A stretch of 64,000 nt of DNA from Parcubacteria group bacterium (GCA_041659505.1 JBAZYF010000001.1:101475-165474); one strand, 5' to 3'; shown: positions 19,641-48,137, numbered from the stretch's first letter. Notes: generated from the letters alone by a model not told the origin. Numbers and translations: made by a program.

Positions 19641-22448
19641 CTAAAGGTATTTCCCCGTCCAACTTTTTTTGCATTTTTTCAGTTCCGCTGGTGAGCCTTC
19701 AAACACAATTTCTCCTCCGCCCGATCCGCCTTCCGGACCCAGATCGATCACCCAATCAGAATTGCGGATCACATCCACATTATGTTCAACGACTAAAACT
19801 GTATTACCTTTGTCGACCAGTGCGTCCAAAACACCCAGGAGTTTGCGGATATCTTCAAAGTGCAGTCCAATCGTTGGTTCATCTAAGATGTACAAAGTTT
19901 TTCCCGTTGCTCGACGTGCCAGCTCCGTGGCCAATTTGATCCGCTGCGCCTCACCACCAGAAAGATCAACGGCGCTTTGTCCTAATTTTAAATAACCCAA
20001 GCCGACTTTTTCCAGCGTGGATAATTTATCTGTCACTAGTTTGGAGTTTTTGAAAAACGCCAGAGCATAGCTCACGCTCATATCAAGTACTTGCGCAATA
20101 TTCACTCCGCGGTATTCAATCTCAAGAGTCCGCTGATTATACTTCGCGCCATTACACGTTTCACACGGCACATAGACATCCGGCAAGAGGTGCATCTCGA
20201 TTTTTTTCTTGCCCTCACCTTGGCAATCCTCACAACGTCCGCCCTTCATATTGAAACTGAAACGGCTAGCATCATACCCACGCGTCTGTGCCTCCTCTGT
20301 TTCGGCAAACAGCTCACGGATGAGCGAAAAAACTCCGGTGTAAGTTGCGGCGTTCGAGCGCGGGGTGCGACCGATCGGTGCTTGATTGATACTGATCACC
20401 TTGTCGATGTTTTCCATTCCGCTAATTTTTTTGTGCTGTCCAGGAGCTTCTTTGGTATTGAAAAAATGTTTAGCCAAAGCTTTGGACAAAATGTCTGAAA
20501 CTAAAGTTGATTTGCCCGAACCGGAAACGCCGGTAAGCGAAATAAATTTTCCCAAAGGTAAGCTCACATCAATATCTTTCAAATTATGCTCTGTCGCTCC
20601 CTGAATCTTGATAAATTTGCCCGAACCCTTGCGCGCTTTTTTCTTATCCCCGACCTGTCTTTTTCCGTTCAGGTACTGCGCGGTCACGGTTTTAGATTTG
20701 AGCAGCGTCGCGAGGTCACCAGAAAAAATCACCTCGCCACCTTCTTCGCCAGCCCCTGGCCCCATATCAATAATCCAATCTGCTGCCCGAATGATCTGTT
20801 CGTCGTGCTCCACGGTAATCAAAGAATTACCCGCTTCACGCAATTCTTCCATCGTCGCAATTAATTTTTCCGTATCACGATTATGCAATCCGATCGATGG
20901 TTCGTCTAAGACATAGGTGATGCCGGAGAGTTCTGAGCCAATCTGCGTCGCCAAGCGAATCCGCTGTCCTTCTCCGCCAGAAATCGAATTAGCCGAGCGC
21001 GAAAGTGAGAGATAACCCAATCCCACATTTTGGAGTGCGGCACTGCGCGCTTTCATTTCCTTGACCAATGGTAAAATAATATTTTTCTTCGCTGAGCTGA
21101 TGTTGATTTTTTCCAGCGCTTCCAAGAATTGCGAAAAATCAACCAGTGGCATATCCACAACCTGATCAATTGATTTGTCCGCCACGAGCACTGAAAGATA
21201 CTCCCCGCGCAGACGCTTGCCCAAACAAAGCGGGCAAACTTTCTCAATCATATATTTTTCAATCTCGCTTCTCAGATAGTTGGAATTCAGTTCTTCATAT
21301 TTCTTTTTCATCGTCGGGATGACGCCTTCGAAAATGATCTTCGGGTCATTGGATCCATAGAGCACGATATTCAAATGTTCCCGACTGATTTTTTTCACCG
21401 GAATATCGACAGAAAATCCATATTTCTCTCCCAGCATTTGCAAAATGTTATTCCCGCTCGTCAGCACGCTTGAGCGTCCGCCGGATTTGTTCCACGACAA
21501 AATCGCACCTTCAGCCAGTGTGAGATTTTTATTAGGAATGAGCAAATCTTCATCGATTTCCTTAATCACACCCAATCCTGAACAATGTTGGCAGGCGCCC
21601 TCGGGACTATTGAAAGAAAAATGTTTCGGTGTAATGTCCGCCACTTCAAAAAAACATTTCTTGCAGACAAAATCACGGTTATAAATTTTTTCTGTCTCAT
21701 TATCTTTAACAACCACGGCAGCACCTTTGCCCAATTTAAAAGCCGTTTCAATCGAATCTAAGATCCGTTCTCGATCAGGATTTTTCTTATTAAGCACGAT
21801 GCGATCAATTACAATTTCTGCGCTACACGTTTCGTCTGCTTCCAATTCGTTCTGCGACAGTGCCTCGGTCAGCGACACGATTTTTCCTCGAAATCGAATC
21901 CGCGCATAACCCAATTGACTGACACTTTTGAGCCGCTCTTTCAAGCTCTGATCTTTACCATTCAGCTTAGCGAGAATTGCAATATTAGTCTTTTCCGGCG
22001 AATCAAGAATGTCCTCCAATACTTCGGCATTAGAAATTTTTTCCAACGGCGTCTTGCAGTGCGGACAATGCGGCGCTCCGGCCTTAGCATAAAGCACACG
22101 CAGATAATCATAGATCTCTGTGAGCGTCCCCACCGTCGAACGCGGACTGCGCGCGATACTTTTTTGATCGATCGAGATAGTTGGCGTCAGATTTTCAATC
22201 TTGTCCACATCCGGTTTAGCCGACACATCCAGAAACTGTGTCGCATAACTCGACATGCCCTCGAGATAGCGCCGATTGCCTTCCGCATAAATCGCATCAA
22301 ACGCCAAAGAAGATTTTCCACTGCCAGAGAGTCCGGTAATGACCACCAGCTTATCCCGCGGAATTTCCACATCAATATTTTTCAAATTATTCACCCGCGC
22401 TCCGCGGACAATGATTTTGCTCCGATCTTTGGGTTTGTTTTTTGACAT
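19641..22448 (-). CDS. uvrA: Excinuclease ABC subunit A (UvrA), canonical length.
   Basis: 935 aa. Two ABC ATPase modules ([20 protein letters not shown]), zinc-finger Cys pairs, and the C-terminal LSGGE signature. Confidence 0.95.
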
Positions 22449-22541
22449 AAAGAAAAAAGAGGTTACATTTTTTAAAAAGACGCTAAAAGCATTACTAGGA
22501 ACAAATTTTACACTAGTTTTTAGGTTTTGGCAAGCTGCTGA

Positions 22542-23219
22542 CTATTCCAACGTCAAAACCTTACTATTCTCACGAAGCCATTTTCTGGCTGTTTTATATT
22601 CCGGCATCACGGTGGCGACTTTGTTCCAAAATTTTTGCGAATGGTTTTTTTCCGGAATGTGCATTAGCTCGTGGATGATGACATAATCTACCACCGCCTC
22701 CGGCGCCATAATGAGCCTCCAATTGAAGTTCAAACTATTTTTTGGTCCGCAAGAGCCCCAGTTGGTTTTGGCGTTGGAAATTTTAAGCGAACAGTATTTG
22801 AGGTTTAACTCTCCCGCGATCATTTTTGTCCGCTCGGAAATGGCTTCCTGCGCTTGTTTTTTGTACCAATCATGCATTCGTGCTTTTGCCCGCCACAAAA
22901 AAACTCTAGGAAAAAGTAATTTATGATCTTCGGTGACTTTAATCGTTGTCCCTTCCACTATTTCTAATTTATATCTTTTTCCCAGATAGAGAAATTCTTC
23001 GCCCGCCTCAAAAGTTTTTTTGGTCGCCTTGGGGCGCCGTTCAAATTCGCGCATCTTCCTTTCAATCCAAGCAAATTTTTCCTCGACCATTTTTTCGATG
23101 TAGCTGAGCGGCGTGCGCATCGGCGCACGCACGACCAACATCGCATCATGTGTAACCATAAGGGCAATATTTTTTCGCTTAGAGCGGATGATTTTTGAGA
23201 TTTTGATTTTATTTTCCAT
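22542..23219 (-). CDS. YgjP-like zinc metallohydrolase (DUF45/M48-like, HEXXH motif HELMH).
   Basis: The ORF is open to 23294. The first 25 codons read through a REP-like repeat, so the start is more likely [10 protein letters not shown] at 23219. [12 protein letters not shown] is a typical DUF45 motif. Confidence 0.65.
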
Positions 23220-23239
23220 ATCGCTAGCTTTATTTATAT

Positions 23240-23294
23240 CCCCTTCTCCATTAGGGAGAAGGTGGCCAAAGGCCGGATGAGGGAGGAGCCTCAC
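23240..23294. repeat. REP/MITE-like palindromic element (family 1, half copy). It has a CCTTCTCC-ATTA-GGAGAAGG hairpin plus a GGCCAAAGGCCGGATGAGGGAGG module.
   Basis: The same modules recur at 23658-23882, 51524-51669, 53911-54068 and 58318-58390. Confidence 0.7.
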
Positions 23295-23641
23295 GAAAAC
23301 TCATCAAGCTTCAGAAACACTCCAGTTAAATTAGAATTAATTTCTCCATTCCAAACTCTTAATACTCGATAGCCTTGTCTTTCAAGATACTTAGTACGCT
23401 CTAAGTCGTACTCCTCTTGTTCGCTATGCTGCCAGCCATCTAGTTCTATTATTAACTTCTTTTCTTCGCAGATAAAATCCACAATATATTTCCCGATTTG
23501 ATATTGTCTTCTAAACTTTAGGTTCTTGAACTGTCTGTTTTTAATTCTAGACCAGAGAATTATTTCTTGTGGCGTTGATTCTTTTCTTAGCTTTCTGCTT
23601 CGTTGTAAAGTTTTGGCTGTTAATTTTACTCTGAGTTTCAT
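23291..23641 (-). CDS. DUF559-type endonuclease domain protein (Vsr/PD-(D/E)xK-like).
   Basis: ...YIVDFICEEKKLIIELDGWQHSEQEEYDLERTKYLERQGYRVLRVWN matches the DUF559 pattern. The ORF's N-terminal extension (to 23704) runs through the repeat, so the start is likely MKLRVKL at 23641. Confidence 0.65.
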   Translation of the reverse strand: MKLRVKLTAKTLQRSRKLRKESTPQEIILWSRIKNRQFKNLKFRRQYQIGKYIVDFICEEKKLIIELDGWQHSEQEEYDLERTKYLERQGYRVLRVWNGEINSNLTGVFLKLDEFS

Positions 23642-23657
23642 TGGGTTTTGTTCAATG

Positions 23658-23882
23658 CCCCTTCTCCTCTCGGGAGAAGGTGCCCGGAGGGCGGATGAGG
23701 GCAAGGGCGTTTGATTAAGAAAAAATTAGCTTTGTTTAGATTATTCTTAGCTTATCACCCTTGCCCTCACCTGTCATGAGTACATGACATCCTCTCCCGA
23801 GGGGAGAAGAGGAATTGAAGAGACTATTTTATAGCCTCACCTGTCACGTGCTCGTGACATCCTCTCCCTAAGGGAGAGGAGG
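23658..23882. repeat. REP/MITE-like composite element (family 1). Two inverted arms flank ~55 bp, plus an extra tandem half.
   Basis: The left arm ...GGGAGAAGGTGCCCGGAGGGCGGATGAGGGCAAGGGC and the right arm CCCTTGCCCTCACCTGTCATGAGTACATGACATCCTCTCCCGAGGGGAGAAG are reverse complements in their modules. The GTCACGTGCTCGTGAC and TCCTCTCCCTAAGGGAGAGGA hairpins repeat at 23826-23882. Confidence 0.75.
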
Positions 23883-23891
23883 AAATTTTTA

Positions 23892-25262
23892 TTATTCCAT
23901 AAAACTCTTCCCTCGTAATTTTTTATGATACGTAATTGCAAAACGATGGGCTTCGTCGCGGACGCGTTCGATGATTTCGTCGGATATTTCCGGCACACTA
24001 CCGAAAGAATAGCGGTCGAGTTTTTTACGGGTCGGACCTTTGGCGACAGCCAAAAGCGGGATCTCCAGATGAAAATTTTTGAGCACACGCCGCACCGCTG
24101 TGAGATGACCTTGCCCGCCGTCTAAAATTATAAGATCTGGCATCGGCCAATTATTGCCAAATCTGCGCCCCAAAACTTCCGCCATCGAAGCCGTATCATT
24201 TGCGCCTTCGATGGTTTTTATTTTAAATTTGCGATACTGACTCTTGTTTGGGCCTATTTCCCCATTCGCATTATCAAACACCACCATAGACCCGACGCTC
24301 GATTTTCCGGAAATATTAGAAATGTCATAACCCTCAATGCGAAATGATTTTGCGTCGCCCTTGTAGAGACGAGGCACTGCCTCGTCTTGGCATTGTTGGT
24401 TTGCGCATTGACGTTCATTGCTCTCAAGACGTGGCAATGCCACGTCTCTACCTTCTGATATCAACGCAATATCCCGAATATGCTGCAACGCAAAAATCGC
24501 ATTGCGCATTTTCCCCGCTTTTTCAAATTCCTGTTTCTCGCTTAATTCTGACATTTCTTTTTTCATTTTCGCAAGCAATGTTTTTTTCTTGCCTTCCAAA
24601 ATCATCCGTATGCCACGGATATTTTTCATATAATCCTCTTTAGAAATCGCCCCAGCATATGGCCCCGGACAAAGCCCGATCTGAAAATCCAAGCAACCAC
24701 TTTCCGTTTTTTGCGCCTTGGAATGATAGGGAAAAATTTTCCTAAGTATTTTCAGCGCAATTTCAATATTTTTTTTGGAAATATATGGACCATAGATTTT
24801 ACTAAATTTGGATTTTATATCGACATCTTGATCCATTTCTCTTTTTCGCAAAAACAATATCCGCGGAAAATCTTCTTTTGTAATGGCAACATAAGAAAAT
24901 GACTTATCATCTTTTCCATCCACATTAAACTTCGGCTGCCACTTTTTGATCAGTCCCTGCTCTAAAATATATGCCTCCAAAACCGTCTCGGTTTTTCGAA
25001 CTTCAATATCCGCCACTTGAGAAATAAACATTTCAATCGGTCGCGATCCCATTCGTAAATTCGTAGGGGTTTGATTCATCAAACCCTCGGCTATTCCGGG
25101 TTCAATAAATTGAACCCCTACAAAATACGAACCAACCCGGTCTTTAAGTGATGTCGCTTTGCCCACATACAAAATTTTCCCAGAATCATTTCTAAAAATA
25201 TAGACACCGGGAGAGGTGGGCAGACTTTTCAGTTTTTTGGCGATTTTGGTTGACATTTGCAT
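23892..25262 (-). CDS. uvrC: Excinuclease ABC subunit C (UvrC). This is a short form lacking the C-terminal HhH region and carrying an in-frame palindromic-element insertion.
   Basis: GIY-YIG domain (GVYIFRNDSGKILYVGKATSLKDRVGSYF), UVR-like segment (EKQEFEKAGKMRNAIFALQ), and the RNase H-like endonuclease domain (YDISNISG...PDLIILDGGQGHL...RDEAHRFAITYH). 456 aa. Confidence 0.9.
   Translation of the reverse strand: MQMSTKIAKKLKSLPTSPGVYIFRNDSGKILYVGKATSLKDRVGSYFVGVQFIEPGIAEGLMNQTPTNLRMGSRPIEMFISQVADIEVRKTETVLEAYILEQGLIKKWQPKFNVDGKDDKSFSYVAITKEDFPRILFLRKREMDQDVDIKSKFSKIYGPYISKKNIEIALKILRKIFPYHSKAQKTESGCLDFQIGLCPGPYAGAISKEDYMKNIRGIRMILEGKKKTLLAKMKKEMSELSEKQEFEKAGKMRNAIFALQHIRDIALISEGRDVALPRLESNERQCANQQCQDEAVPRLYKGDAKSFRIEGYDISNISGKSSVGSMVVFDNANGEIGPNKSQYRKFKIKTIEGANDTASMAEVLGRRFGNNWPMPDLIILDGGQGHLTAVRRVLKNFHLEIPLLAVAKGPTRKKLDRYSFGSVPEISDEIIERVRDEAHRFAITYHKKLRGKSFME
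24363..24450. repeat. Palindromic element (family 4) inserted in frame inside uvrC. It has two perfect hairpins, GACGAGGCACTGCCTCGTC and GACGTGGCAATGCCACGTC, flanked by TAGAGA...TCTCTA.
   Basis: Read directly from the sequence. It encodes ...RDVALPRLESNERQCANQQCQDEAVPRLYK... in the UvrC linker. A second copy lies intergenic at 41158-41226. Confidence 0.75.
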
Positions 25263-25322: not shown

Positions 25323-25505
25323 ATGGCAGAAAAGGAACTGTTGTATAAATATCTTATAGTTATTTGCCGCGAAGGAATAACCGAAGTTATTCCCTTCGAA
25401 AACGAAATTACTCCCGAAAGTGTCGATGCATATTTCGAACGCGTTTCTGAACAATGGTCAGATGCATATTTTTGCAAAGTCCTTAAGGGGCCAATTAAAA
25501 TATAA
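25323..25505 (+). CDS. Small hypothetical protein (60 aa) with a strong Shine-Dalgarno (GGAGGatatatATG).
   Basis: MAEKELLYKYLIVICREGITEVIPFENEITPESVDAYFERVSEQWSDAYFCKVLKGPIKI. It is the first gene of a two-gene + strand module between uvrC and uvrA2. Confidence 0.5.
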   Translation: MAEKELLYKYLIVICREGITEVIPFENEITPESVDAYFERVSEQWSDAYFCKVLKGPIKI

Positions 25506-25522
25506 AAATAGGAGGTACAAAA

Positions 25523-25989
25523 TGGTAGACTGGAAGAAAGCCAAACATTTCTTTTTTAAGGCGATGATCAACGGATGGGCCGGTAACGCAGAAAAAATTA
25601 CGCTACCGCAAATGCCCGGATACAAAGTGATTTCATTCAGTGAGGAAGATTTATATCTCACTGATTGCTATTGCGTAACACCGGATTCCACAAGTTCGGT
25701 AGGAACCACTACGATATATTACGAGGATAATCCTATTTGGATTATGCAATACGGCGGTTACTACAGAAAAGAAGCTATTGGATTTCTTAAGGAAGTATTG
25801 CTTTCTTCCTATGAAAACCGTGACTTCATTGGCGGACGTGGCCCATATCAACAAAAAAATCATGACCTGATTTATACAAACAACCCATCAACAAATCGAT
25901 TTCATGATTTTAAAGGAGAAGAGAACATACACAACCAGACATATAACATCAAAATGGGATATCACCATTATTGGGGCATGAGTTTTTAA
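25523..25989 (+). CDS. Hypothetical protein (155 aa) with a strong Shine-Dalgarno (AGGAGGtacaaaATG).
   Basis: MVDWKKAKHFFFKAMINGWAGNAEKITLPQMPGYKVISFSEEDLYLTDCYC...IWIMQYGGYYRKEAIGFLKEVL... I recognise no confident family. It starts 17 nt after the upstream small gene. Confidence 0.55.
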
Positions 25990-26082: not shown

Positions 26083-26143
26083 AATCAGTGAAATCACTTT
26101 AATCAGTGAAAATCAGTGGTTCTGATGTTTAGTGGTTCAGGCA
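26083..26143. repeat. CACTGATT-rich repeat (family 6) immediately 3' of uvrA2. It contains AATCAGTGGTTCTGAT.
   Basis: AAAATCAGTGAAATCACTTTAATCAGTGAAAATCAGTGGTTCTGATGTTTAGTGGTTCAGG. A related element with terminal inverted repeats is at 39925-40026. Confidence 0.6.
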
Positions 26144-29100
26144 TTCTTTCAGATATTTCCCCGTCCAACTCTCTTTATCCCACTTCGCCACTTCTTCCGG
26201 TGTGCCGGAAACAATCACTTTGCCGCCTTCTTTCCCGCCTTCCGGACCCAGATCAATGATCCAATCGGCGGTTTTTATCACATCTAAATTGTGCTCGATT
26301 ACAATCACGGTGTTGCCCGCATCCACCAGACGATTAAGAATGCCCAACAATTTTTTGATATCATCGAAATGCAAGCCAGTCGTCGGTTCGTCGAGAATGT
26401 AAAGCGTGTCGCCTGTTGCACGACGAGAAAGTTCCGTGGAAAGTTTGATCCGTTGGGCTTCTCCGCCGGAGAGCGTCGTGGCTGATTGGCCGAGTTGAAT
26501 GTAGCCCAAGCCGACATCTTCCAAAACTTTGAGCTTGTCGGCGATATCATGAAAATTAGCAAAAAATTCGCGCGCTTCGGAGATAGTCAAGGCCAGCACA
26601 TCCGCAATATTTTTGTCACGGTATTTCACTTTCAGCGTTTCACTATTGTAGCGTTTTCCACCGCAAACATCGCAAGGCAGATAAACATCCGGCATAAATT
26701 GCATTTCGATCTTATTATATCCATCCCCCTGGCAATTATCACAGCGTCCGCCTTTGACATTGAAAGAAAAGCGTCCCGGCGAATAGCCTTTCGCTTTGGC
26801 GTCGCGCGTTTCGGCAAACAGTTCGCGAATGGCCGTGAATAGTCCCGTGTAGGTCGCGGGATTGGACCGTGGCGTGCGACCGATCGGCGATTGATCAATC
26901 ATAATTACTTTGTTGAGATAATGATCGCCGACAATTTCACTGTGCTTGCCTGGCCGTTCCAGAGAACGCATAATTTTGGCTGAAAGCGCTTTGTAGAGAA
27001 TATCTTCCACCAGCGTTGATTTTCCCGAACCGGACACTCCGGTCACGCAGGTCAAAACTTTGAGCGGAAACGACACAGTAATATTTTGCAAATTATGTTC
27101 GCGCGCTCCCCGCACCACGAGCGTTTTTTTGCTTTTGAGCGATCGACGATATGCCGGGGCTTCAATCGAAAGATCTCCCCGTAAATATTTGGCCGTCAGT
27201 GATTCTTCACTTTTCATCACTTCTAGAGGCGTTCCTTCGGCGACAATTTCTCCGCCGTGTTTTCCCGCGCCTGGCCCGATGTCCACGAGGTAGTCCGCGG
27301 CGCGCATCGTTTCTTCATCGTGCTCCACCACAATCAAGGTATTACCCACATCGCGCAGTTGCAAAAGCGTCGCAAGCAGTTTGGCGTTGTCCCGCGCATG
27401 CAGACCAATTGATGGCTCATCAAGGATATACAGCACGCCAACGAGCTGGGAGCCGATCTGTGAGGCTAGGCGGATGCGTTGTGATTCTCCACCGGCTAAA
27501 GTGTTAGCGGCGCGACCGAGCGAAAGATAGCCAAGGCCGACGTCTTGCAAAAATCCCAAGCGATTTTGAATTTCTTTCAAGATCCGGCTAGCGATCAACT
27601 CTTCACGTTTGGTGAAATTTATTTTTTGAAAAAAATCCAACGTTTCCCGCACACTGATGGTGGAAACTTCATGGATGTTTTTCCCGCCTGCAACGCTATG
27701 CTCTTCAGAACTAGTACTTTCCTTTATTTTTTTACTATAACCGTCAGAATTCTCCGTTCCACTTAACAGCGTAGCATTGCGGGCAGGATCGCCCACAGTC
27801 ACAAGTAAAGCTTCTTTTTTATAGCGCGAACCGAGACAAGTCGAACAGGGATTTTGGGACATATATTTCTCAATGTCTGTGCGCACGCCTTCCGAATCAG
27901 TCTTGAGATAGCGATCCTGCAAATAGCCCACCACTCCCCGCCAGTGCATATTATATTTCCAACTTGATCCGGTCTTGCTTCTCAAGGTCACAGGAATTTC
28001 ATCCCCGCCCGCATCGCTACGCGAAGCGTTGCGGGCGGGAGCGCCTTCCTCTAACGTTATATCCGTTATATCTGAAGTGCCATAGAGCAGGGTATTAAAA
28101 TCATCATCGGAAAGGTCGCGCAAACGCACATTATCCCGAATGTCATAAAAATTCGTCACTGCGCGCAAAATTGTTCCCTGCCAATTGTTTTTCTTATAAC
28201 TCCACGGCATAATTCCGCCTTCCGCGATCGTTTTGTTCATATCCGGCACAACCAGATCAGGATCAATCTCTTTTTTCACGCCCAACCCTTCACAGGATGG
28301 ACAAGCACCAAACGGACTATTGAAAGAAAACAGGCGCGGTTCCAATTCCGGAAAATCCACCTCATGCACCGGACAAGAAAAATTCTGATTGAAAATCATT
28401 TCGCCATCAAAACTAGGACCAGAGCTAAGCTCTCGGCTCCGAGAGCTTAGCTCTGGTTTCTCTAGTTTTTCGGATTTAAGTCCTCTTATGGTTTTTTTTG
28501 CTGTTTTATTTTTCCCATCTCCTGTCATCAATTTTATTTTCACAATTCCCTTAGACAATTTCAAGGCTTGTTCCACACCTTCAAAGATCCGCGAAATATT
28601 CTCGGAATTTATTTCTACCTTATCAACTAAGATATCAATATTGTGTTTTTTATAACGTTCTAATTTCACCCGTGTGCCGATCTTTTCATCCAGCGCATAT
28701 TTTTTTCCGTTGACAAAGGCGGTGGAGAAACCGCGCCGAAACATCTCCTCGAGAAGTGTCGAGTATTCCCCTTTGCGTTCCCGCACGATAGGAGAAAAAA
28801 TTTCAATCGCACAATCATCTTTTTTTGATTTTTTATCCTTACCTGTCGTGCAAATATTCAAAATCCGATCCACAATTTCATCTGTGGACAGTTTCACGAT
28901 TTCTCGGTTGCAAATCGGACAATGCGCCACACCGATTTTGGCATAAAGCAGACGCAGATAGTCGTGAATTTCCGTCACCGTTCCCACGGTTGAACGTGGA
29001 TTGTGTGAAGCGGCTTTTTGGTCAATCGAAATCGCGGGACTAAGCCCCTCGATTGAATCGACTTCCGGCTTTCCCATCTGACCCAAAAACTGGCGGGCAT

Positions 29101-29281
29101 AGCTCGACAGACTTTCCAGATATCGCCGTTGTCCCTCGGCAAAAATGGTATCAAAAGCCAGCGTACTCTTGCCTGAGCCGGAAATTCCGGTGAAAACAAT
29201 AAATTTATTCCGCGGTAGATCGAGATTGATATTCTTGAGATTGTGCTCTCTCGCTCCGCGAATGATTAATTCGTCTTGCAT
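26129..29281 (-). CDS. uvrA: UvrA paralog (UvrA2), 1050 aa. It is a complete two-module UvrA with several G+C-rich insertions.
   Basis: [65 protein letters not shown]... plus a second module [11 protein letters not shown] and the LSGGEAQR signature. It is ~110 aa longer than the copy at 19641-22448 because of three insert segments. Confidence 0.9.
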   Translation of the reverse strand: MQDELIIRGAREHNLKNINLDLPRNKFIVFTGISGSGKSTLAFDTIFAEGQRRYLESLSSYARQFLGQMGKPEVDSIEGLSPAISIDQKAASHNPRSTVGTVTEIHDYLRLLYAKIGVAHCPICNREIVKLSTDEIVDRILNICTTGKDKKSKKDDCAIEIFSPIVRERKGEYSTLLEEMFRRGFSTAFVNGKKYALDEKIGTRVKLERYKKHNIDILVDKVEINSENISRIFEGVEQALKLSKGIVKIKLMTGDGKNKTAKKTIRGLKSEKLEKPELSSRSRELSSGPSFDGEMIFNQNFSCPVHEVDFPELEPRLFSFNSPFGACPSCEGLGVKKEIDPDLVVPDMNKTIAEGGIMPWSYKKNNWQGTILRAVTNFYDIRDNVRLRDLSDDDFNTLLYGTSDITDITLEEGAPARNASRSDAGGDEIPVTLRSKTGSSWKYNMHWRGVVGYLQDRYLKTDSEGVRTDIEKYMSQNPCSTCLGSRYKKEALLVTVGDPARNATLLSGTENSDGYSKKIKESTSSEEHSVAGGKNIHEVSTISVRETLDFFQKINFTKREELIASRILKEIQNRLGFLQDVGLGYLSLGRAANTLAGGESQRIRLASQIGSQLVGVLYILDEPSIGLHARDNAKLLATLLQLRDVGNTLIVVEHDEETMRAADYLVDIGPGAGKHGGEIVAEGTPLEVMKSEESLTAKYLRGDLSIEAPAYRRSLKSKKTLVVRGAREHNLQNITVSFPLKVLTCVTGVSGSGKSTLVEDILYKALSAKIMRSLERPGKHSEIVGDHYLNKVIMIDQSPIGRTPRSNPATYTGLFTAIRELFAETRDAKAKGYSPGRFSFNVKGGRCDNCQGDGYNKIEMQFMPDVYLPCDVCGGKRYNSETLKVKYRDKNIADVLALTISEAREFFANFHDIADKLKVLEDVGLGYIQLGQSATTLSGGEAQRIKLSTELSRRATGDTLYILDEPTTGLHFDDIKKLLGILNRLVDAGNTVIVIEHNLDVIKTADWIIDLGPEGGKEGGKVIVSGTPEEVAKWDKESWTGKYLKECLNH
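28419..28456. repeat. Perfect 38 bp palindrome CCAGAGCTAAGCTCTCGG|CTCCGAGAGCTTAGCTCTGG, inserted in frame in uvrA2.
   Basis: Read directly. It encodes KPELSSRSRELSSGP within a uvrA2-specific insert. Related GC-rich palindromes (CCCGCCCGC...GCGGGCGGG at ~28004-28046 and ~27770-27800) lie in two further inserts, both of which encode PARNA motifs. Confidence 0.7.
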
Positions 29282-29335
29282 AATATATAAAAAGTGTGAT
29301 GTGTTTAAATTTAGTATACTCTAGTTTACAGCTCT

Positions 29336-29354
29336 TTGAGTTTTCCTGCAAGCG
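29336..29354. repeat. 19 bp direct repeat TTTGAGTTTTCCTGCAAGC (copy 1). It is followed by two hairpins at 29374-29425.
   Basis: An identical 19-mer recurs at 30285-30303. The pair brackets the single gene 29411-30157. Confidence 0.7.
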
Positions 29355-29410
29355 AACTGTCCCTAAAATATTACGAGCCGGTACAAATGAGTTTGCACCG
29401 GCTCGCTTCC

Positions 29411-30157
29411 CTATTTAGGGATGTTGAAAGCTGTTTTTTTGAAAACCAGTCCGAAGAGCTGGCCACCACGCAAGGCTCGCTTGCTTATTTTTGCCTGATC
29501 AACAGAAAGAATCTCACTGAGATATCCCTCCCCATCGTCCCGTGGCAATACCACGCTTAGAATCTGAATAATCCAGAAATTTCCATCGGCATCTTGCAAT
29601 AAAGAGTTGTTAATATCGCAGACCCGACTTAAAGATATCGTGGTTAAATCAGCGACATAACAATAGTTGTAGATCGCCGAGGAATCCTGTGGCAAAAGGT
29701 CTTGATCCAAAATCCCTAGCTGAAGAAATTCCGATTTTTTGACTTGCCCGAATGCAAATAAATAACAGGCCGGACTAGTGATCACACCTCTCAGCGAGAA
29801 ACTGACCGGTTTGTCCTTATAAAGGGCATATATCCCTCTCGGCAGGACATTAGAATCGTGCAGTGCCCAGGCATAAGACCCATTGGCATATTTGAAATGG
29901 CATAATGTTCCTAGTCCTTCATTAAATACTAGCTCCATTTCAGAAGGGACGGTAAAAAATGACCATCCGCTAGACTGATAAAACGGGGACTCCAAAAAGA
30001 CCTGGTTCAGAATTGACATCGTTTCAACCACTATCCTTTTCTGATGGATTATTTCCTTTCCATTAAAAAAGTACAGAGCTCTCTGCTCACTTGCAAATGC
30101 TAACAAAGAACTTGATAACAAAACAATCATTACCATTAAACACAACCCTCTTTTCAT
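29411..30157 (-). CDS. Secreted hypothetical protein (248 aa) with an N-terminal signal peptide.
   Basis: MKRGLCLMVMIVLLSSSLLAFASEQ... No recognisable domain. It is flanked by the 19 bp direct repeats. Confidence 0.55.
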   Translation of the reverse strand: MKRGLCLMVMIVLLSSSLLAFASEQRALYFFNGKEIIHQKRIVVETMSILNQVFLESPFYQSSGWSFFTVPSEMELVFNEGLGTLCHFKYANGSYAWALHDSNVLPRGIYALYKDKPVSFSLRGVITSPACYLFAFGQVKKSEFLQLGILDQDLLPQDSSAIYNYCYVADLTTISLSRVCDINNSLLQDADGNFWIIQILSVVLPRDDGEGYLSEILSVDQAKISKRALRGGQLFGLVFKKTAFNIPK

Positions 30158-30284
30158 AAGACACCTCCTTGTGTGGTTTGTTGAAAAAATAATTGGTTAT
30201 CCTTATGTTTACACCAAAGAACAGCTTAGTCAAATAGCTCCTCAGTATAGGCTAAGATTTGAAACACTACATGGCTTGAAACTT

Positions 30285-30303
30285 TTTGAGTTTTCCTGCA
30301 AGC
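30285..30303. repeat. 19 bp direct repeat TTTGAGTTTTCCTGCAAGC (copy 2).
   Basis: Exact match to 29336-29354. Confidence 0.7.
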
Positions 30304-30389
30304 CAAAATCTTAGAAAAAAATTCAAGCCAGCTTTTAATAGAACAAAGCTGGCTTTTTTAGGCAGAGACATTGCACTGCACTTCTGGAG

Positions 30390-30575
30390 TTAATAGAAAA
30401 TGGCCATATCCCCTGGCTTGAGAGAAATGCCTTTTTCCACTCCCTTATTAAGATCGAATGAGGCAGATCCAAGTTCAACCATCTCCGAGTTTGCAATTGA
30501 GGCTGGATCATACATATACACTTTCTCGATGAACTCACCGAGAGTTCTTGAGTCTACAACTGGAAATTCTGGCAT
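30390..30575 (-). CDS. Small hypothetical protein (61 aa) with a strong Shine-Dalgarno (AAGGAGGaatcatATG).
   Basis: MPEFPVVDSRTLGEFIEKVYMYDPASIANSEMVELGSASFDLNKGVEKGISLKPGDMAIFY. The longer track ORF (to 30692) has no RBS and is rejected. The gene overlaps the upstream gene's 3' end by 36 nt. Confidence 0.5.
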   Translation of the reverse strand: MPEFPVVDSRTLGEFIEKVYMYDPASIANSEMVELGSASFDLNKGVEKGISLKPGDMAIFY

Positions 30576-31303: not shown

Positions 31304-31963
31304 CTAAAGGCTCACATATTTCACCGGCAAAACTTTTCGGAAAATGCCGGCAAAAATGAAGGAGTCGGATTTGTGGATAAAGATCGGCTGGTGGATCGGG
31401 TTGGTCGATTTGGGAAAAAGGCCGATCACGTCTTCACTGACTTTTTTGTAGCGTTTGATGGTGGCCATGCCGTTCACCACTGCCACGACAATCTTACCTT
31501 CCAATTCTTCCTGGTGTTCATATTTCTCAAAAATGACGTAGTCGCCATCGTTGATTTTTTCCTTGTCCATCGAATCGCCCAAGGCCTTCACGGCAAAAAG
31601 CAAAGACTCATCTTTGTCACGAAAAAGCGCTTTGGAAATTTGCAAAAAGCCGTCGACATTGTCCTGCGCATAAGCCAGCGCTTCTCCGCAAGATGCCAAG
31701 CCATAGACCGGCACAGAGAAAATATTTTTAAAATTAGTATAATTCTTGTTTTCCACCAGATAGATTTTCTTGTTCTTATCACGCTTGATTAGATCCTTTT
31801 TTTCGAGTGATTCAATCACTTGCATTACCGATTTCAAACTATCCTTCACACCTTGCGACTCCAAAAATTTTTGCAACCGATAGCTGGTGGGATTAGCTTT
31901 CCCCTGGTCGATCAGCTCTCGGATCGATTCCAGGATGTTTTGTTGTTTGGCTGTTAGGATCAT
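31304..31963 (-). CDS. lexA: LexA-like repressor (N-terminal wHTH plus S24 peptidase domain with Ser/Lys dyad).
   Basis: 219 aa. The N-terminus MILTAKQQNILESIRELIDQG is wHTH-like. It has the self-cleavage region VYGLASCGEA, the catalytic GDSM, and the Lys in ATIKRYKK. This matches the LexA/CI/UmuD S24 family. Confidence 0.75.
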   Translation of the reverse strand: MILTAKQQNILESIRELIDQGKANPTSYRLQKFLESQGVKDSLKSVMQVIESLEKKDLIKRDKNKKIYLVENKNYTNFKNIFSVPVYGLASCGEALAYAQDNVDGFLQISKALFRDKDESLLFAVKALGDSMDKEKINDGDYVIFEKYEHQEELEGKIVVAVVNGMATIKRYKKVSEDVIGLFPKSTNPIHQPIFIHKSDSFIFAGIFRKVLPVKYVSL

Positions 31964-32029
31964 AGTTTTATTTTGGTTTTTACGCGTCTAAATTTTAGTA
32001 AACACGTAAATCCTCTTTTTTTAATAATT

Positions 32030-32064
32030 ACAGTGTTATTTTAACATTGATAGTCTAACACTGT
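32030..32064. promoter_or_regulatory. Candidate operator upstream of the lexA-like gene: ACAGTGTTA-N17-TAACACTGT, with an inner 13 bp palindrome TGTTATTTTAACA (32034-32046).
   Basis: The inverted repeats were read directly. They lie 70-100 nt upstream of the repressor start at 31963. Assignment as an operator is inference. Confidence 0.3.
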
Positions 32065-32133: not shown

Positions 32134-33210
32134 TTAATTTCCGCAAGCAGCACCAGAGGCACTAGCAGCGGCAGGAGCAGTGCCCTCACCAAATCCCGGT
32201 GCGGGAGCAGCAGAGGAAAGTGTTGTCGAACATTCTTTCGGTTCAGTCTTAAATCCAGAGCAAATAGTTTTCAAAAGACTTGTAGCATCTCTTCCAGCTG
32301 AAGCAGCCTCCACCCCGTTAATTACGAGTGTTGGAGAACCTTTCACGCCATATTTTTCATTATCCGCCTTGTTCACATTGAACGGCGGGTATGATCCTTG
32401 GTAAGTACTCTTATCCTCATAATTTTTCGTCACGTCAAATTGAGTATCCGCTTGCGTCATGCAGGTTTTCACTGTTGCCGCAGCGACACCGGCTGTTTGC
32501 ATACAACTATCCTCTGTACCTTGCCCAACCTTGAGAAAACAAGTCAGGTAAGCACTTAATTTTGCCGGCTGATTTTTTTGGATGCAATATTGTCTCAAAT
32601 TTTCATCCAATTCTTTTTTGTCATGCATCGCGTAGTTGACAAATTTCAGAGTATAGTTAATTTTTGTTCCAAGAGCAGTGAGTACTGGCAGGATGCCTTT
32701 TTCAATCTGTGTTCCATATGGGCAATAACTCATCACGAACAGTTCCACAACCGGCTTGTCAGTTTTAGGAATTTCTGCCACAGGCTTGGTTTCTCCCGGT
32801 GTTTGCTCAGCAGCCATTTTTTGCTCTGTTTCCGCGATATCCATCACGCTAGGAAAAAACTTTGATCCGTCAGTTGATAGATAGGAAGTAATTTCTTGCT
32901 TTTGCGCTCCTTCGCCGATTGAAACCATCACTTTAAACATTCCGTTTTCCTTGGCCACTGACGTGATGTCGGCTTTCGCTCCACCTTGCATCAAATTGTT
33001 GTTGATGAAATCTGCCACTTTTGCCTTCGCCTGGCTTTCCGTCAAATTGTGTTTACTCCAAACTAGCTTATAGTAACCATAACCACCAAGCGCAACAACC
33101 AAAAGGATGATTGCAATAATCTTGGGCAAATGTTTTTTATATTTCTCGCAACCGCAAGTCCCCTTCTCGCAGCAGTCCGCATCCATGGACTCTTTCTTTT
33201 CTTCTTCCAT
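32134..33210 (-). CDS. Membrane-anchored thioredoxin-fold thiol-disulfide oxidoreductase (DsbA-like, CPYG active site).
   Basis: A TM segment IIAIILLVVALGGYGYY, then ...VMSYCPYGTQ... and a C-terminal Cys-rich region. Confidence 0.6.
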   Translation of the reverse strand: MEEEKKESMDADCCEKGTCGCEKYKKHLPKIIAIILLVVALGGYGYYKLVWSKHNLTESQAKAKVADFINNNLMQGGAKADITSVAKENGMFKVMVSIGEGAQKQEITSYLSTDGSKFFPSVMDIAETEQKMAAEQTPGETKPVAEIPKTDKPVVELFVMSYCPYGTQIEKGILPVLTALGTKINYTLKFVNYAMHDKKELDENLRQYCIQKNQPAKLSAYLTCFLKVGQGTEDSCMQTAGVAAATVKTCMTQADTQFDVTKNYEDKSTYQGSYPPFNVNKADNEKYGVKGSPTLVINGVEAASAGRDATSLLKTICSGFKTEPKECSTTLSSAAPAPGFGEGTAPAAASASGAACGN

Positions 33211-33861: not shown

Positions 33862-33884
33862 AGTAAGTACTTATTCTTTTTATA

Positions 33885-35126: not shown

Positions 35127-35190
35127 ATTTTTTACTAAAATAAGGTTATACCTGCTTTTAGTATATACTTTTATCTGGCATACGTCAAGT

Positions 35191-35607: not shown

Positions 35608-35610
35608 AAA

Positions 35611-35832
35611 TTATTCATTTATCAATTTAAATCTAGGAGTTTCTTTCCCATCAACTATCACGTTTTCCAAAAACATCTGCTTGGGCCGCACCCATACGGA
35701 ACCTTTTCCAAAAGTTCTACATTCGTATAGTGCCCTATATACGACCATCTCTTCCAGTGTCTCGCTATGATGAGCGACGGCGATAACTTCAATGATGCCA
35801 CCCTTATAATGTTTATATTTTCCTAGTTTCAT
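35611..35832 (-). CDS. DUF1653 family small protein.
   Basis: MKLGKYKHYKGG...ALYE...GSVWVRPKQMF. Confidence 0.65.
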   Translation of the reverse strand: MKLGKYKHYKGGIIEVIAVAHHSETLEEMVVYRALYECRTFGKGSVWVRPKQMFLENVIVDGKETPRFKLINE

Positions 35833-35862
35833 AAAGCGTTTTATTACTCCTCTCTATGCGAT

Positions 35863-36366
35863 TTAAATTGAAGTTTTTATTTTCTCCGCCATTTTTTTTA
35901 ATTTTTTAAAATCCGCCATCGGGCCATCAGCTGAACTCAGATAGCCGGCATATTTTTTAAAATATTCAGATTTTTCACTGTTATACCGTTTCCAAATACC
36001 TTTTTTCATATGCCCCGTTCCGTGCATTGGAACAAGCTTGATGTGTGCATGGTCTATTCCGGTGCCTTCCATAATGAGTCCAACTCGACCAACGTCTTTA
36101 AAATAATCTTCCAAAAGTTTTGCTACTTTCTTGGCGGCTAGGATAAAATTTGCCAAAGCCTTGTCATCCATTTTCAAGACGTCGCTAGCGTAATGCTTTT
36201 TGGGAATAATCATCGCAAATCCTTCCGTATTGGGAAAAGGAGACAGCCAAGCCATATAGTTTTTATCCTCCCAAATCAAACTATCACCTAAGGGTTTGAT
36301 TTTACCTTTGGCGATTTCGCAAAAGATGCATTCACCCACGTCTGTTTTGTTTTTGTAGTTTGCCAT
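35863..36366 (-). CDS. HIT family hydrolase.
   Basis: Histidine triad IDHAHIKLVP. N-terminal CIFCEI. Confidence 0.8.
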   Translation of the reverse strand: MANYKNKTDVGECIFCEIAKGKIKPLGDSLIWEDKNYMAWLSPFPNTEGFAMIIPKKHYASDVLKMDDKALANFILAAKKVAKLLEDYFKDVGRVGLIMEGTGIDHAHIKLVPMHGTGHMKKGIWKRYNSEKSEYFKKYAGYLSSADGPMADFKKLKKMAEKIKTSI

Positions 36367-36459: not shown

Positions 36460-36753
36460 ATGCAACAAGCAAAACGAGATGACACAGGCTGCTGTATCGG
36501 CGAGATAAAAGCGGTAATGCCAGGCGACATTCTTACGCTTTTCCCAAGCGGCGATATTTTATTTCTTCGTGGATGTTATGGAATCGCAATTCCAGAAAGC
36601 GGAGTCATGCCAGAAAACGGGATTTGGACAGAAAAAAGCGTCTCTTCCCTAATCGCTTTCATTATAGACGAATTCGGACTTGCCGTAGAAAGAACGGAGA
36701 AAAAAAGCCTAATCTCCCCGGGTAATAATGTTTATTACCGCTTCATGCGATAA
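36460..36753 (+). CDS. Hypothetical small protein (97 aa) with a strong Shine-Dalgarno (AAAGGAGGcaaaaATG).
   Basis: MQQAKRDDTGCCIGEIKAVMPGDILTLFPSGD... No recognised family. Confidence 0.5.
   Translation: MQQAKRDDTGCCIGEIKAVMPGDILTLFPSGDILFLRGCYGIAIPESGVMPENGIWTEKSVSSLIAFIIDEFGLAVERTEKKSLISPGNNVYYRFMR

Positions 36754-36812: not shown

Positions 36813-36815
<3 letters not shown>
36769..36815. terminator. Convergent terminator hairpin ATATGCCCG-N19-CGGGCATAT plus a T run, between the hypothetical gene and the uvrB stop.
   Basis: Read directly. TATTTTTTT follows the stem. Confidence 0.55.
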
Positions 36816-38876
<2,061 letters not shown>

Positions 38877-39461: not shown

Positions 39462-39558
39462 ATTTTAAATTGTCTTGAACTGTGATTTTTGTGATTATTT
39501 GATGGACTATGATTTCTTAATCAAAATCCCAATCATAGTTTTCATTCAATCAGACGAA

Positions 39559-39861
39559 TCATAGTTCGAGATTAAGATAACAAGCGTAGCGATCAAGTTT
39601 CCAATCCCGCACCTGCCTTACAGTATTTGAACCTATTTCGACCATTTTAACCAACTGGTTAAAATGGTTATCCGTGTCCTGAACGCTATTAATGCAAGCC
39701 TTTATAGCCCTACTGATAACTTCCTGGGCTTTTTGCCAATTTGGATAACCCAAGAGAGGCATCAGCTCCCGCGCTTCCCAAAATTCGACACCATTTTCAT
39801 CGATCTTTTTAATGTTCTCAAAGTCCTTGTGGACTCCCAATGCAACTTCCATTTTTGTCAT
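39559..39861 (-). CDS. DinD-family (DNA-damage-inducible protein D) N-terminal domain protein, only 100 aa.
   Basis: ...GVEFWEARELMPLLGY...VEIGSNTVRQVRDWKLDRYACYLNL closely parallels the N-terminal domain of E. coli DinD (…GAEQWSARQLGKLLGY…VKIGSNAKRALKDIVLSRYACYL…). It lacks the C-terminal two-thirds. Confidence 0.6.
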   Translation of the reverse strand: MTKMEVALGVHKDFENIKKIDENGVEFWEARELMPLLGYPNWQKAQEVISRAIKACINSVQDTDNHFNQLVKMVEIGSNTVRQVRDWKLDRYACYLNLEL

Positions 39862-39924
39862 AGTTTTAGTGTTAGTTTTATTATAATGATATTATAACAC
39901 TAAAGCAAAACTACTGTCAATTGT

Positions 39925-40026
39925 CTGAACCACTGATTATCACATGAGCTCACATGATTTCACTGATTTATGAATCTAATCATGTGAAATCAGCGTAATC
40001 AGTGCGAATCAGTGGTTCTGATTTAT
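39925..40026. repeat. CACTGATT-family element (family 6) with ~15 bp terminal inverted repeats (TCTGAACCACTGATT ... AATCAGTGGTTCTGA) 3' of manC.
   Basis: The inverted termini were read directly. Internal CACATGA and CACTGATT repeats. Related to 26083-26143. Confidence 0.6.
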
Positions 40027-41096
40027 AGATACTTCCCTCCCCGCTCTTTCAACTCTTCCACTATTTTTTTCACATCCTGCGCTCGGGATTTGGGACAAAT
40101 GAGCAGTGCATCATCCGTGTCCACAATTAGCAAATTGTCTATGCCAATTGTTGCAATCAATTTATTTCCATTCCCCTTGATAAGCGAGTTTCTGCTTTCA
40201 ATAGCCAAAATATTACCATCCGTATAGGCTTGTTCTGGAGAAGCTAGGTATTCATAAATAACCCCCCAGGTGCCCATGTCCATCCACTTAAATGGATTGA
40301 TAATCAGGTAGGTCTGATCAAAAATATGTTTTGTAACATCTTCTACTGGGCCAGATTTCATAGAAGCATAAATTTTATCCACTTCCCTCGTTGAATCTTT
40401 TTTCCCGAGAGCTGTTTTTATCTTCATCAGTGCCTTATGCCAGGCGGGGTTATGTTTTTCATAAAGAGCCAGCATCAAATCGGGATACCAGCAATAGTGA
40501 TTTGAGTGGGTTGCTATTTTGAAATTACTGATTAGCTCCTCTGTTTCTTCGTAGGTATCCAGCCGGGGGATAAATTTTTGAATTTTGAAAATATCCATAT
40601 CCTCCTTGCTTTTGACCTGCTCACCTAGCATTAAATAGTCAATGCCCATATCTGGGTAGAGCGCTTTTTGTCCTCCAGTTACCAGCTTTTTCTCTTTCTT
40701 AACTAGTCTTTCGGCGGCTCTTGTCATTTCAATGAATTTTTTGTCCGGCTTACGAAGGCAATCCGCTTGAACAATCATGAAAGGTTCTTTGGGATATTTC
40801 ATAGCTACTTTCACAATTGCAAAGCCTGTGGCTGGCCCGGTATTTCTCGCCACGTCCGGTTCAATAATAATATTTTCTAGAGATATTTCCGGCGCATCTT
40901 CAACTACATACTTCACATATCTTCTTTTGGTTGAAACAAAAATATCCTGAGATCCATATTCCTTGAGTAACGATTCAACATTTTGCCTGAAGAGAGTTTT
41001 ATTTCCCACTATTGGCTGAAATTGCTTTGGCTTGTCTTCTCGACTCAATGGCCAAAGTTTAGTTCCTTGCCCTCCTGCGAAGATTATAAATTTCAT
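40023..41096 (-). CDS. manC: Mannose-1-phosphate guanylyltransferase (GDP-mannose pyrophosphorylase).
   Basis: The N-terminus MKFIIFAGGQGTKLWPLS is the nucleotidyl transferase glycine loop. 357 aa. Confidence 0.75.
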   Translation of the reverse strand: MKFIIFAGGQGTKLWPLSREDKPKQFQPIVGNKTLFRQNVESLLKEYGSQDIFVSTKRRYVKYVVEDAPEISLENIIIEPDVARNTGPATGFAIVKVAMKYPKEPFMIVQADCLRKPDKKFIEMTRAAERLVKKEKKLVTGGQKALYPDMGIDYLMLGEQVKSKEDMDIFKIQKFIPRLDTYEETEELISNFKIATHSNHYCWYPDLMLALYEKHNPAWHKALMKIKTALGKKDSTREVDKIYASMKSGPVEDVTKHIFDQTYLIINPFKWMDMGTWGVIYEYLASPEQAYTDGNILAIESRNSLIKGNGNKLIATIGIDNLLIVDTDDALLICPKSRAQDVKKIVEELKERGGKYL

Positions 41097-45846: not shown

Positions 45847-45856
45847 TAATCAAAAA

Positions 45857-45879: not shown

Positions 45880-45880
45880 T

Positions 45881-46051: not shown

Positions 46052-46126
46052 TCATTGAAGTGTCTTGCAAAAAAAAGAAACGAGTCATCGGCTCGCTTCT
46101 CATCTTTCTCAGTAAATTAGAACAAT

Positions 46127-47293: not shown

Positions 47294-47297
47294 AGGA

Positions 47298-48137
47298 TTA
47301 TTTACCGCTTAGTTTTTTAGTATCTTTATTTTTCAAAAAATTATTCTTCGAAACAATCGGCCGTTTCAATTTCCTTTCAATTTGCTTTCTGGCCGTTCCA
47401 GCAATTTGTCCACCGACTCGCGCGTCATCTTTCAGTCTCGGCAAGCCCTGGGAATCTTTTGTGCGATGAATTTCCGTCGTTGTTCTTTCTCCGAGCATCG
47501 TGAGTATGAGCTCGAAATCATCCATGTGATCACGCAGATTTTCCCACTTCAACCCTTTCACCTTTTTATATTCCGCTGGCGTTATACCAAAAGTAGCCTT
47601 GGAAATTTCTGCAGTCAAAATTTCATAATCCCGCTGCTCTTTTGCTCCACGTTTTTGCCATTCATCGGTTAGTTCTTCGCGAACAGCAATACCGCGCATC
47701 CGTTTTTCAATCCAATCTTCGGGATAGCCTTTGAGCTTATAGAGCAGTTTCGTTCTTTTAGTCGCCAGTTCAGGATTTTCAATTTCTTGTATTCGCTCAT
47801 AGCCCACTTTCGCCAACCAACGTTTTAGTGGCTCAGCTTTGGGCGAAGGAATTGATTGAACAATACGAAACATTCCCTCAGTATTGGCGCAATCAGTTTC
47901 ATATTTTTTCCCATCTGTCGCCTCCAATTTCAGTTGTACCCAAATTGGGGACAACTGAAGATCAATAAACTCGCGCCGTTTTACCTTACCCCAATATTGC
48001 CTTGGGGTGGGGCTATCTGTTAGTACAGCAACCACATCAACAATCGAAAACCACCACTCTTTCTGATGCAGCGTTTTTCGAATTGACTTGCCTCTAAATA
48101 TGGCGATTTGATTATTTTGATTTTCGCTGTCCAACAC
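47298..48137 (-). CDS. Bro-N domain / DinD-family protein (DNA-damage-inducible protein D-like, antirepressor-like), 279 aa.
   Basis: The N-terminus IAIFRGKSIRKTLHQKEWWFSIVDVVAVL is Bro-N/KilA-N-like. The C-terminal half (...KGLKWENLRDHMDDFELILTMLGERTTTEIHRTKD...) parallels the E. coli DinD C-terminal region. The DinD comparison is from memory. Confidence 0.5.
   Translation of the reverse strand: MLDSENQNNQIAIFRGKSIRKTLHQKEWWFSIVDVVAVLTDSPTPRQYWGKVKRREFIDLQLSPIWVQLKLEATDGKKYETDCANTEGMFRIVQSIPSPKAEPLKRWLAKVGYERIQEIENPELATKRTKLLYKLKGYPEDWIEKRMRGIAVREELTDEWQKRGAKEQRDYEILTAEISKATFGITPAEYKKVKGLKWENLRDHMDDFELILTMLGERTTTEIHRTKDSQGLPRLKDDARVGGQIAGTARKQIERKLKRPIVSKNNFLKNKDTKKLSGK

Follow-up and report, generated by a model that had tools for sequence, protein, structure and literature searches.

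The 64-kb window analysed here (the whole stretch of 64,000 nucleotides from a Parcubacteria group bacterium, GCA_041659505.1 JBAZYF010000001.1:101475-165474) contains, between 19.6 and 39.9 kb, uvrA1, a uvrC without the helix-hairpin-helix (HhH) region, a second full-length uvrA (uvrA2), a gene for a LexA-type S24 repressor, uvrB, and a fragment of dinD. We consider it likely that this is a vertically inherited chromosomal neighbourhood of repair genes with a small LexA regulon, and that the uvr genes are outside LexA control. The window is a chromosomal piece of a Candidatus Moranbacteria bacterium (Patescibacteria/Candidate Phyla Radiation (CPR)). The component families are all well known and do not make up a new system; the neighbourhood would nevertheless provide a counter-example to intuition, in that repair genes clustered beside lexA need not be SOS-regulated. 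Our search of the literature for Moranbacteria and uvrA, or for nucleotide excision repair (NER) in the CPR, returned nothing specific.

Repair genes and their order in relatives

Gene identities, synteny, and the conservation and distribution of the operator described below were read directly from the sequences. We identified the genes by scanning the window's long open reading frames (ORFs) with Pfam and NCBIfam, which bore out the clustering of uvrA, uvrC, a second uvrA, a lexA-like gene and uvrB that had been noticed in a preliminary description of the window. The principal genes are as follows.

19641-22448, minus strand: uvrA1, 935 aa (NF001503, 1267 bits; cut-off 1147)
23892-25262, minus strand: uvrC, 456 aa (TIGR00194, 325 bits; cut-off 285)
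26129-29281, minus strand: uvrA2, a second full-length class-I UvrA, 1050 aa (NF001503, 1405 bits)
31304-31963, minus strand: lexA homologue, S24 peptidase, 219 aa, with a winged-helix N-terminus
32134-33210, minus strand: membrane-anchored thioredoxin-like protein, 358 aa; a conserved neighbour with no obvious role in repair
36813-38876, minus strand: uvrB, 685-687 aa (NF003673, 981 bits)
39559-39861, minus strand: truncated dinD, 100 aa, Bro-N domain (NF008573, 114 bits; cut-off 242)

We scanned a genome collection with the LexA protein and retrieved 18 loci (65-98% identity; individual loci and contigs are given below as L numbers), almost all of which are labelled Candidatus Moranbacteria/Moraniibacteriota or Patescibacteria. 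Gene order in these loci was determined by tblastn of the window proteins. The order uvrB-(variable)-358-aa-lexA-(variable)-uvrA2-uvrC-(YgjP)-uvrA1-330-aa-cpn60 recurs and is kept down to 72% LexA identity, with uvrA1 orthologues 68-93% identical, and the flanking genes cpn60, SBP_bac_5, secG and PGI are also syntenic across relatives. For a deeper comparison, we used contigs that encode UvrC homologues of only 52-58% identity. Every one of these contigs has the uvrA2-uvrC pair, usually followed by uvrA1 and preceded by the thioredoxin-like gene and uvrB. Conservation of gene order, which the preliminary description had proposed as a check, is thus borne out by both comparisons. A lexA gene is present on one of the more divergent contigs, L020, where uvrB-345aa-lexA-uvrA2-uvrC-uvrA1-320aa-cpn60 falls within 15 kb; the whole set takes up ~12.4 kb, with little intergenic DNA bordering lexA and the uvrA2-uvrC-uvrA1 module. 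No uvr gene was found within 10 kb of the more distant lexA loci L013, L014 and L018. uvrC is directly behind uvrA2 in L003, L005, L007, L015, L020 and L028, with gaps of ~5-50 bp in several genomes; in several relatives this adjacent pair is probably transcribed as a unit. The conserved unknowns of 358 and 330 aa were considered as hidden repair factors and rejected, their sequences looking like those of a membrane thioredoxin-like protein and a nucleotidyltransferase, respectively.

We propose that the conserved core, uvrA2-uvrC and then uvrA1, with the thioredoxin-like gene and usually uvrB upstream, would be typical of one Moranbacteria clade, and that lexA would stand between the upstream genes and the core in one subclade. 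In the window genome, the core would then have been split by strain-variable cargo, some of it with foreign-looking strong ribosome-binding sites, an order of insertion that we infer.

The LexA homologue and its candidate operator

The LexA homologue has a Peptidase_S24 domain (E=2e-18) that includes the GDSM serine and the TIKRY lysine of the Ser/Lys dyad. The protein aligns end to end with TIGR00498, at 88 bits relative to a cut-off of 111, and the best match for its N-terminus is LexA_DNA_bind, weak but full-length (20.5 bits; gathering score 23.7). The cleavage site, SCGEA, is Cys-Gly, as in UmuD, and not the canonical Ala-Gly. It is probably still cleavable, and LexA would cleave itself there upon activation of RecA. 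The lexA promoter (TTGACA-18-TAAAAT, 11/12 match plus TG) is covered by two overlapping 19-bp palindromes, CAGTGWTA-N3-TAWCACTG, that are 14 bp apart and have the central CAATG in common. Alignment of 18 lexA promoters, that of the window among them, shows these twin palindromes to be conserved. LexA would repress its own strong promoter through them, with one palindrome over the -35 and the other over the -10. The S24 dyad and the palindromes in the gene's own promoter fit an autoregulated LexA, in agreement with the earlier assignment of this gene as a LexA-type S24 repressor.

A position weight matrix (PWM) of 24 such sites (19.9 bits) was used to scan the window with a threshold of at least 8 bits. 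Three sites were found, two at lexA and one at the dinD fragment; the PWM maximum in 20 Markov shuffles of the window was 16.7 bits.

32045-32063 (over the -35) and 32031-32049 (over the -10), minus strand: twin putative LexA operators, 25.4 and 23.8 bits
39884-39902, minus strand: putative LexA box of the dinD fragment, over the -10, 18.8 bits; the only non-lexA site of at least 8 bits

The preliminary description had put forward an inverted repeat at 32030-32064 as the starting point for a shared operator. This repeat is exact (9+9 nt) and corresponds to the outer arms of the two overlapping palindromes. It is therefore part of the putative lexA operator, and the same box is found at the dinD fragment, but there is none at the uvr genes. 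Within the window, the exact 9-nt arms occur only in the lexA promoter, and half-sites with one mismatch are not enriched.

The distribution of the box in other genomes is similarly narrow. Related loci totalling 306 kb contain a single non-lexA site of at least 13 bits, at a recA promoter (L018). We also scanned a metagenome collection for the exact box pattern, which gave 120 loci; most of these are fortuitous matches to AT-rich DNA of unrelated organisms, and only those beside CPR-type genes were used. Among the latter, the box is 20-52 nt upstream of recA twice (L094, L101), of lexA once (L049), and of a gene for a 288-aa DinD once (L123). A Parcubacteria contig (L025) has a 20.9-bit perfect palindrome before a gene for a 91-aa DinD-N-like protein, which is followed by a RhuM gene. 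Because lexA, recA and dinD together are a classic SOS signature, we infer from this gene set, and from the position and palindromy of the sites, that CAGTGWTA-N3-TAWCACTG is the LexA operator of the clade. The visible regulon would be small, consisting in the window of lexA and the truncated dinD, to which relatives add recA and a full-length dinD. The box gives an uncultured CPR clade a clean, testable candidate operator for its LexA. Work by Sanchez-Osuna, Barbe and Erill in 2017 (Environ Microbiol 19:3465; cited in PMC8565304) reportedly dealt with the SOS network of Patescibacteria, which belong to the same superphylum.

The dinD fragment matches the 288-position DinD model over positions 7-95 and is 50% identical to residues 1-100 of the 288-aa DinD in L123. 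Its promoter (39891-39920) is TTGACA-18-TATAAT, a 12/12 match plus TG. The promoters of the 288-aa DinD (L123) and of the 91-aa form (L025) carry the box too. The remainder of dinD is absent from the window, with no surviving frameshifted pseudogene. Two DinD-family genes had originally been described. The first, at 39559-39861, is indeed an N-terminal fragment; the second, at 47298-48137, has only the Bro-N domain, does not match the DinD model, and resembles neither the fragment nor full-length DinD by BLASTP, and we rejected it as a second DinD. Long imperfect hairpins of short tandem units occupy the intergenic spacers 19523-19645, 39925-40030 and 39470-39558, with units of the AATTTCTAA type and of the CACTGATT/AATCAGTG type. 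Such hairpin arrays lie to either side of the dinD fragment and have a similar junction, GTTCAGACAATT / GTTCAAGACAATT, which hints that the truncation of dinD may have arisen by recombination between the flanking arrays.

The system resembles the SOS response of E. coli in having an autoregulated LexA-type S24 repressor with palindromes over its own promoter, and, in the clade, a box at recA and dinD. It differs in its operator (CTGT-N8-ACAG in E. coli), in its cleavage site (Ala-Gly in E. coli), and in its uvr genes, which are dispersed in E. coli, with uvrA and uvrB controlled by LexA, but clustered and box-free in the window clade. The B. subtilis-type LexA/DinR box, GAAC-N4-GTTC, does not occur at the window lexA promoter. 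The Firmicutes uvrBA operon of B. subtilis is also an instance of physically linked excision-repair genes; here, by contrast, the linked genes are uvrA2-uvrC-uvrA1, uvrB is several kb away, and the uvr genes have no LexA box.

Several other features of lexA and of the box were observed. The 5' untranslated region of the window lexA contains a hairpin at 31979-32010, TTTACGTGTTTA-N8-TAGACGCGTAAA; the lexA leaders of L003, L009 and L010 differ in sequence and retain a hairpin. The leaders of L002, L004 and L007 have instead a ~130-nt insert that resembles a miniature inverted-repeat transposable element, with the ends ATCCCCCACCACTTTT...AAAAGTGGTGGGGGAT, and in L004 this insert is also upstream of the thioredoxin-like gene. 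Motif inspection of CPR-like metagenome contigs showed the box before genes for a putative N6-adenine methyltransferase-like protein (L092 3490), a cytosine-5 DNA methyltransferase-like protein (L105 2729) and a 61-aa Cys-rich protein (L075 9116), which may be further members of the regulon or genes of mobile elements. In L013-L018, L020, L025, L049, L075, L101 and L123, a perfect DnaA-box-like sequence, GTTATCCACAG, is ~10 nt upstream of the -35. In these distant relatives it accompanies the promoters of lexA, recA and dinD as well as some unrelated ones; in the window, a search that allowed one mismatch found no copy.

Transcription of the uvr genes and origin of the cluster

We analysed the 250 nt upstream of 53 orthologues of uvrA1, uvrA2, uvrC and uvrB. 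The best PWM scores ranged from -10.3 to 4.9 bits, which is no higher than the background of random segments (median -4.5, 95th percentile 4.9), as compared with 16.7-26.9 bits for lexA promoters. Likewise, none of the 120 metagenome box loci (0/120) has the box beside a uvr gene. An operator shared by the repair genes, as the preliminary description had anticipated, is therefore not supported by the scans of the window and of the orthologous upstream regions. uvrA1 and uvrA2 each have a promoter of their own.

22505-22533, minus strand: uvrA1 promoter, TTGCCA-17-TAAAAT, conserved in close relatives; upstream PWM maximum -6.7 bits
29323-29351, minus strand: uvrA2 promoter, TTGCAG-17-TAAACT, conserved; upstream PWM maximum -1.0 bits
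29373-29406, minus strand: terminator hairpin with a 15-bp stem, after the gene for the 248-aa cargo protein; insulates uvrA2 from upstream transcription

By inspection, there is a second terminator hairpin between lexA and uvrA2, at ~30330-30365. Upstream of uvrB, neither sequence conservation nor a box is seen. When uvr promoters were compared by eye and across orthologues, with no de novo motif finder, the only other motifs they had in common were a TTGCxx -35 and a TGTAAA-type -10. Because uvrA1 and uvrA2 have their own box-free promoters, and because terminators separate uvrA2 from lexA, expression of the uvr genes is most likely constitutive.

The preliminary description had instead proposed a co-regulated DNA-damage island. 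On such a model, LexA would control the uvr genes, either from sites that the scan missed or by read-through from the lexA promoter. It is established that LexA regulates uvrA and uvrB in both E. coli and B. subtilis, and in the window lexA is located within the cluster and has the same orientation as uvrA2, uvrC and uvrA1. Moreover, the organisation in two relatives would favour read-through: in L019, uvrA2 starts 13 bp past the lexA stop codon with no promoter or terminator between them, and in L020 the gap is 96 bp with no obvious terminator. Damage induction of uvrA2, and perhaps of uvrC and uvrA1, by transcription from the lexA promoter is plausible in such relatives, and may be the ancestral state. 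Further points also count against constitutive expression and a small regulon: the uvr promoters may contain a highly degenerate site, or respond to some other, unrelated regulator, beyond the reach of a PWM scan; the list of regulon members covers 64 kb of the genome and is hence incomplete; and binding of LexA to the box is itself a deduction from position, palindromy and gene set. In the window, however, no box of at least 8 bits is near any uvr gene, two hairpin terminators and a separate conserved promoter intervene between lexA and uvrA2, and uvrB is upstream of lexA with five unrelated genes between them. Together with the background scores of the orthologues and the metagenome result, these features make LexA control of the uvr genes in this genome unlikely.

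The genes might also be close together by chance or neutrally in a small genome, with no meaning for function, their order persisting merely through close kinship of the relatives compared. CPR genomes are small, the intervening genes (thioredoxin-like, NUDIX, HIT, ManC) are unrelated to repair, and the adjacency of lexA and uvrB is lost in L010, L013, L014, L018, L021, L022 and L028. Nevertheless, an order-of-magnitude estimate of the chance of finding four independent loci within 19 kb of a ~1-Mb genome is 4 x (0.019)^3 = ~3e-5, and the short gaps of the uvrA2-uvrC pair have been kept operon-like in several genomes. We regard mere proximity as quite improbable, and continue to favour a repair neighbourhood maintained by descent.

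The cargo between the core genes is absent or different in relatives; it comprises the DUF559, DUF5680, AAA_14/DUF4143 and DUF1653 genes and unknowns of 248 and 200 aa. These and the other genes that accompany the core are listed below.

22542-23294, minus strand: YgjP-like metallopeptidase, found in many relatives
23291-23704, minus strand: DUF559 Vsr-like endonuclease, seen in the window and in none of the relatives compared
25420-25989, plus strand: DUF5680 cargo gene, on the opposite strand, separating uvrA2 from uvrC
29411-30157, minus strand: secreted protein of 248 aa (cargo), with the Shine-Dalgarno (SD) sequence AAGGAGGTG
33358-36366, minus strand: NUDIX, AAA_14/DUF4143 ATPase, 2-thiouracil desulfurase, DUF1653 and HIT genes, between lexA and uvrB
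47298-48137, minus strand: Bro-N domain protein, 279 aa, with neither a DinD model match nor a LexA box
52852-53905, plus strand: rpsF-ssb operon, with SSB at 53393-53905 immediately after rpsF, and no LexA box

The five genes between lexA and uvrB are partially conserved in relatives. The ORF adjoining the dinD fragment, at 40023-41096, encodes a ManC-type nucleotidyltransferase, and one homologue of the 358-aa thioredoxin-like protein gives a weak VSR_TRX match. The gene for SSB, which had been noted as lying further along from the cluster, is at that position, but it belongs to an ordinary rpsF-ssb operon. As described previously, small unknown genes with strong SD sequences are interspersed: AAGGAGG precedes the ORFs at 30390-30575 and 36460-36753, and AAGGAGGTG precedes the gene for the 248-aa protein. 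No SD sequence was found before the core genes, including all the uvr genes, lexA and the ribosomal genes. The contrast between SD-rich cargo and an SD-less core suggests that the cargo is foreign and the repair genes are not. The gene for the 248-aa protein is within an inserted cassette (29332-30303, minus strand). The 22-nt direct repeats that bound this cassette (29332-29353 and 30282-30303) amount to a duplication of the uvrA2 promoter's -35 region. The possibility that the two AAA_14/DUF4143 genes of the window are copies of one mobile element was rejected, as they are only 31% identical.

The strong-SD cargo, the repeats around this cassette, the DUF559 and DUF4143-type genes inside the block, the low identity of the two UvrA copies (at least one of which could be foreign), and a GC content of uvrA2 raised to 0.48 would fit horizontal transfer as the source of the entire NER/SOS block, whether by assembly or by import, a stronger form of the earlier suggestion of an island possibly assembled or maintained in that way, but such an origin is very improbable, given that the block and its housekeeping flanks are syntenic across relatives, that the uvr genes and lexA, like ribosomal and other core genes, start without an SD sequence, that no integrase, tRNA gene or target, or island-wide flanking repeat was seen in the window, and that the modest excess of GC in uvrA2 is explained by palindromic inserts, GC being otherwise even.

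UvrA paralogues, a short UvrC and other window features

The UvrA1 and UvrA2 proteins are 44% identical, with Walker A, Walker B and signature motifs intact in both. Each has two ABC ATPase modules together with the UvrB-interaction and insertion (DNA-binding) domains, which places both in class I. UvrA1 is a canonical member, with both UvrA_inter and UvrA_DNA-bind found and a score of 1033 bits against PDB 2r6f. The presence of two UvrA-family genes in a single genome recalls the class-II UvrA ('UvrA2') of Deinococcus radiodurans (PDB 2vf7). The 1050-aa protein differs from that class in scoring ~1090 bits against class-I structures as compared with 664 against class II, and we ruled out its assignment to class II because it retains UvrA_inter (82.8 bits) and passes the UvrA equivalog cut-off. 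The 1050-aa UvrA occurs verbatim on metagenome contigs.

The uvrA2 ORF contains perfect GC-rich palindromes, in frame, within 27682-28457, and these account for most of its ~115 extra residues. The palindrome at 28418-28457 (19+19 nt) encodes the peptide PELSSRSRELSSGP, and that at 28004-28039 (18+18 nt) encodes APARNASRSDAGG. An arm, AGCGTTGCGGGCGGGA, recurs at 27682-27697 and 27773-27788, with a 75-nt loop between. No copies of these palindromes were found elsewhere in the window. They resemble Rickettsia palindromic elements in being in-frame palindromes that add peptide loops and leave the reading frame unbroken, but differ from them in sequence and lineage. We also observed a palindrome with a 12-bp stem, GTAGAGACGCATTGCAATGCGTCTCTAC, in the uvrB ORF (37577-37604), and, in L022, a similar hairpin, GTAGAGACG, between uvrC and uvrA1. 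These may represent another family of small palindromic inserts.

UvrC consists of GIY-YIG, UVR and RNase-H-like endonuclease domains. The Pfam and NCBIfam scan found no (HhH)2 domain, and the protein stops 13 residues past the RNase-H domain. Its best 120 homologues (363-509 aa) all have the same set of domains, so the lack of HhH is clade-wide. The window UvrC is like Cho in having a GIY-YIG 3'-incision domain and a UVR motif, but unlike Cho it retains the RNase-H-like 5'-incision domain; by comparison with E. coli and T. maritima UvrC, it is missing the C-terminal (HhH)2 DNA-binding domain. The conserved uvrA2-uvrC-uvrA1 module raises the question of how NER operates with two UvrAs and no (HhH)2 in UvrC in bacteria with minimal genomes. 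It is conceivable, though doubtful, that UvrA1 and UvrA2, intact paralogues of ancient divergence, form a heterodimer or divide their labour and act with an HhH-less UvrC, the whole of NER being uncoupled from a LexA regulon that has shrunk to lexA, recA and dinD. Any such division may concern, for example, different classes of lesion, or one paralogue may compensate for the DNA-binding domain missing from UvrC.

Outside the repair genes, nine large ORFs on the same strand (499-638 aa) occupy 1509-16424, between a histidine kinase gene and cpn60. Five of the nine match right-handed beta-helix proteins, and the array is interrupted by the second AAA_14/DUF4143 ATPase gene (11549-12730). L020 has a single gene of ~913 aa at this position, which suggests that surface-protein genes have undergone a lineage-specific expansion here. 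An inverted repeat (18440-18475), TTAGCACTC-N9-GATTGCTAA, downstream of the cpn60 promoter resembles the controlling inverted repeat of chaperone expression (CIRCE), implying heat-shock control of the HrcA type. Lastly, at 55611-56231 and 57100-57529, an AbiEii-type toxin gene adjoins smpB and the gene for transfer-messenger RNA (tag AIAQAFTVNFATALA).

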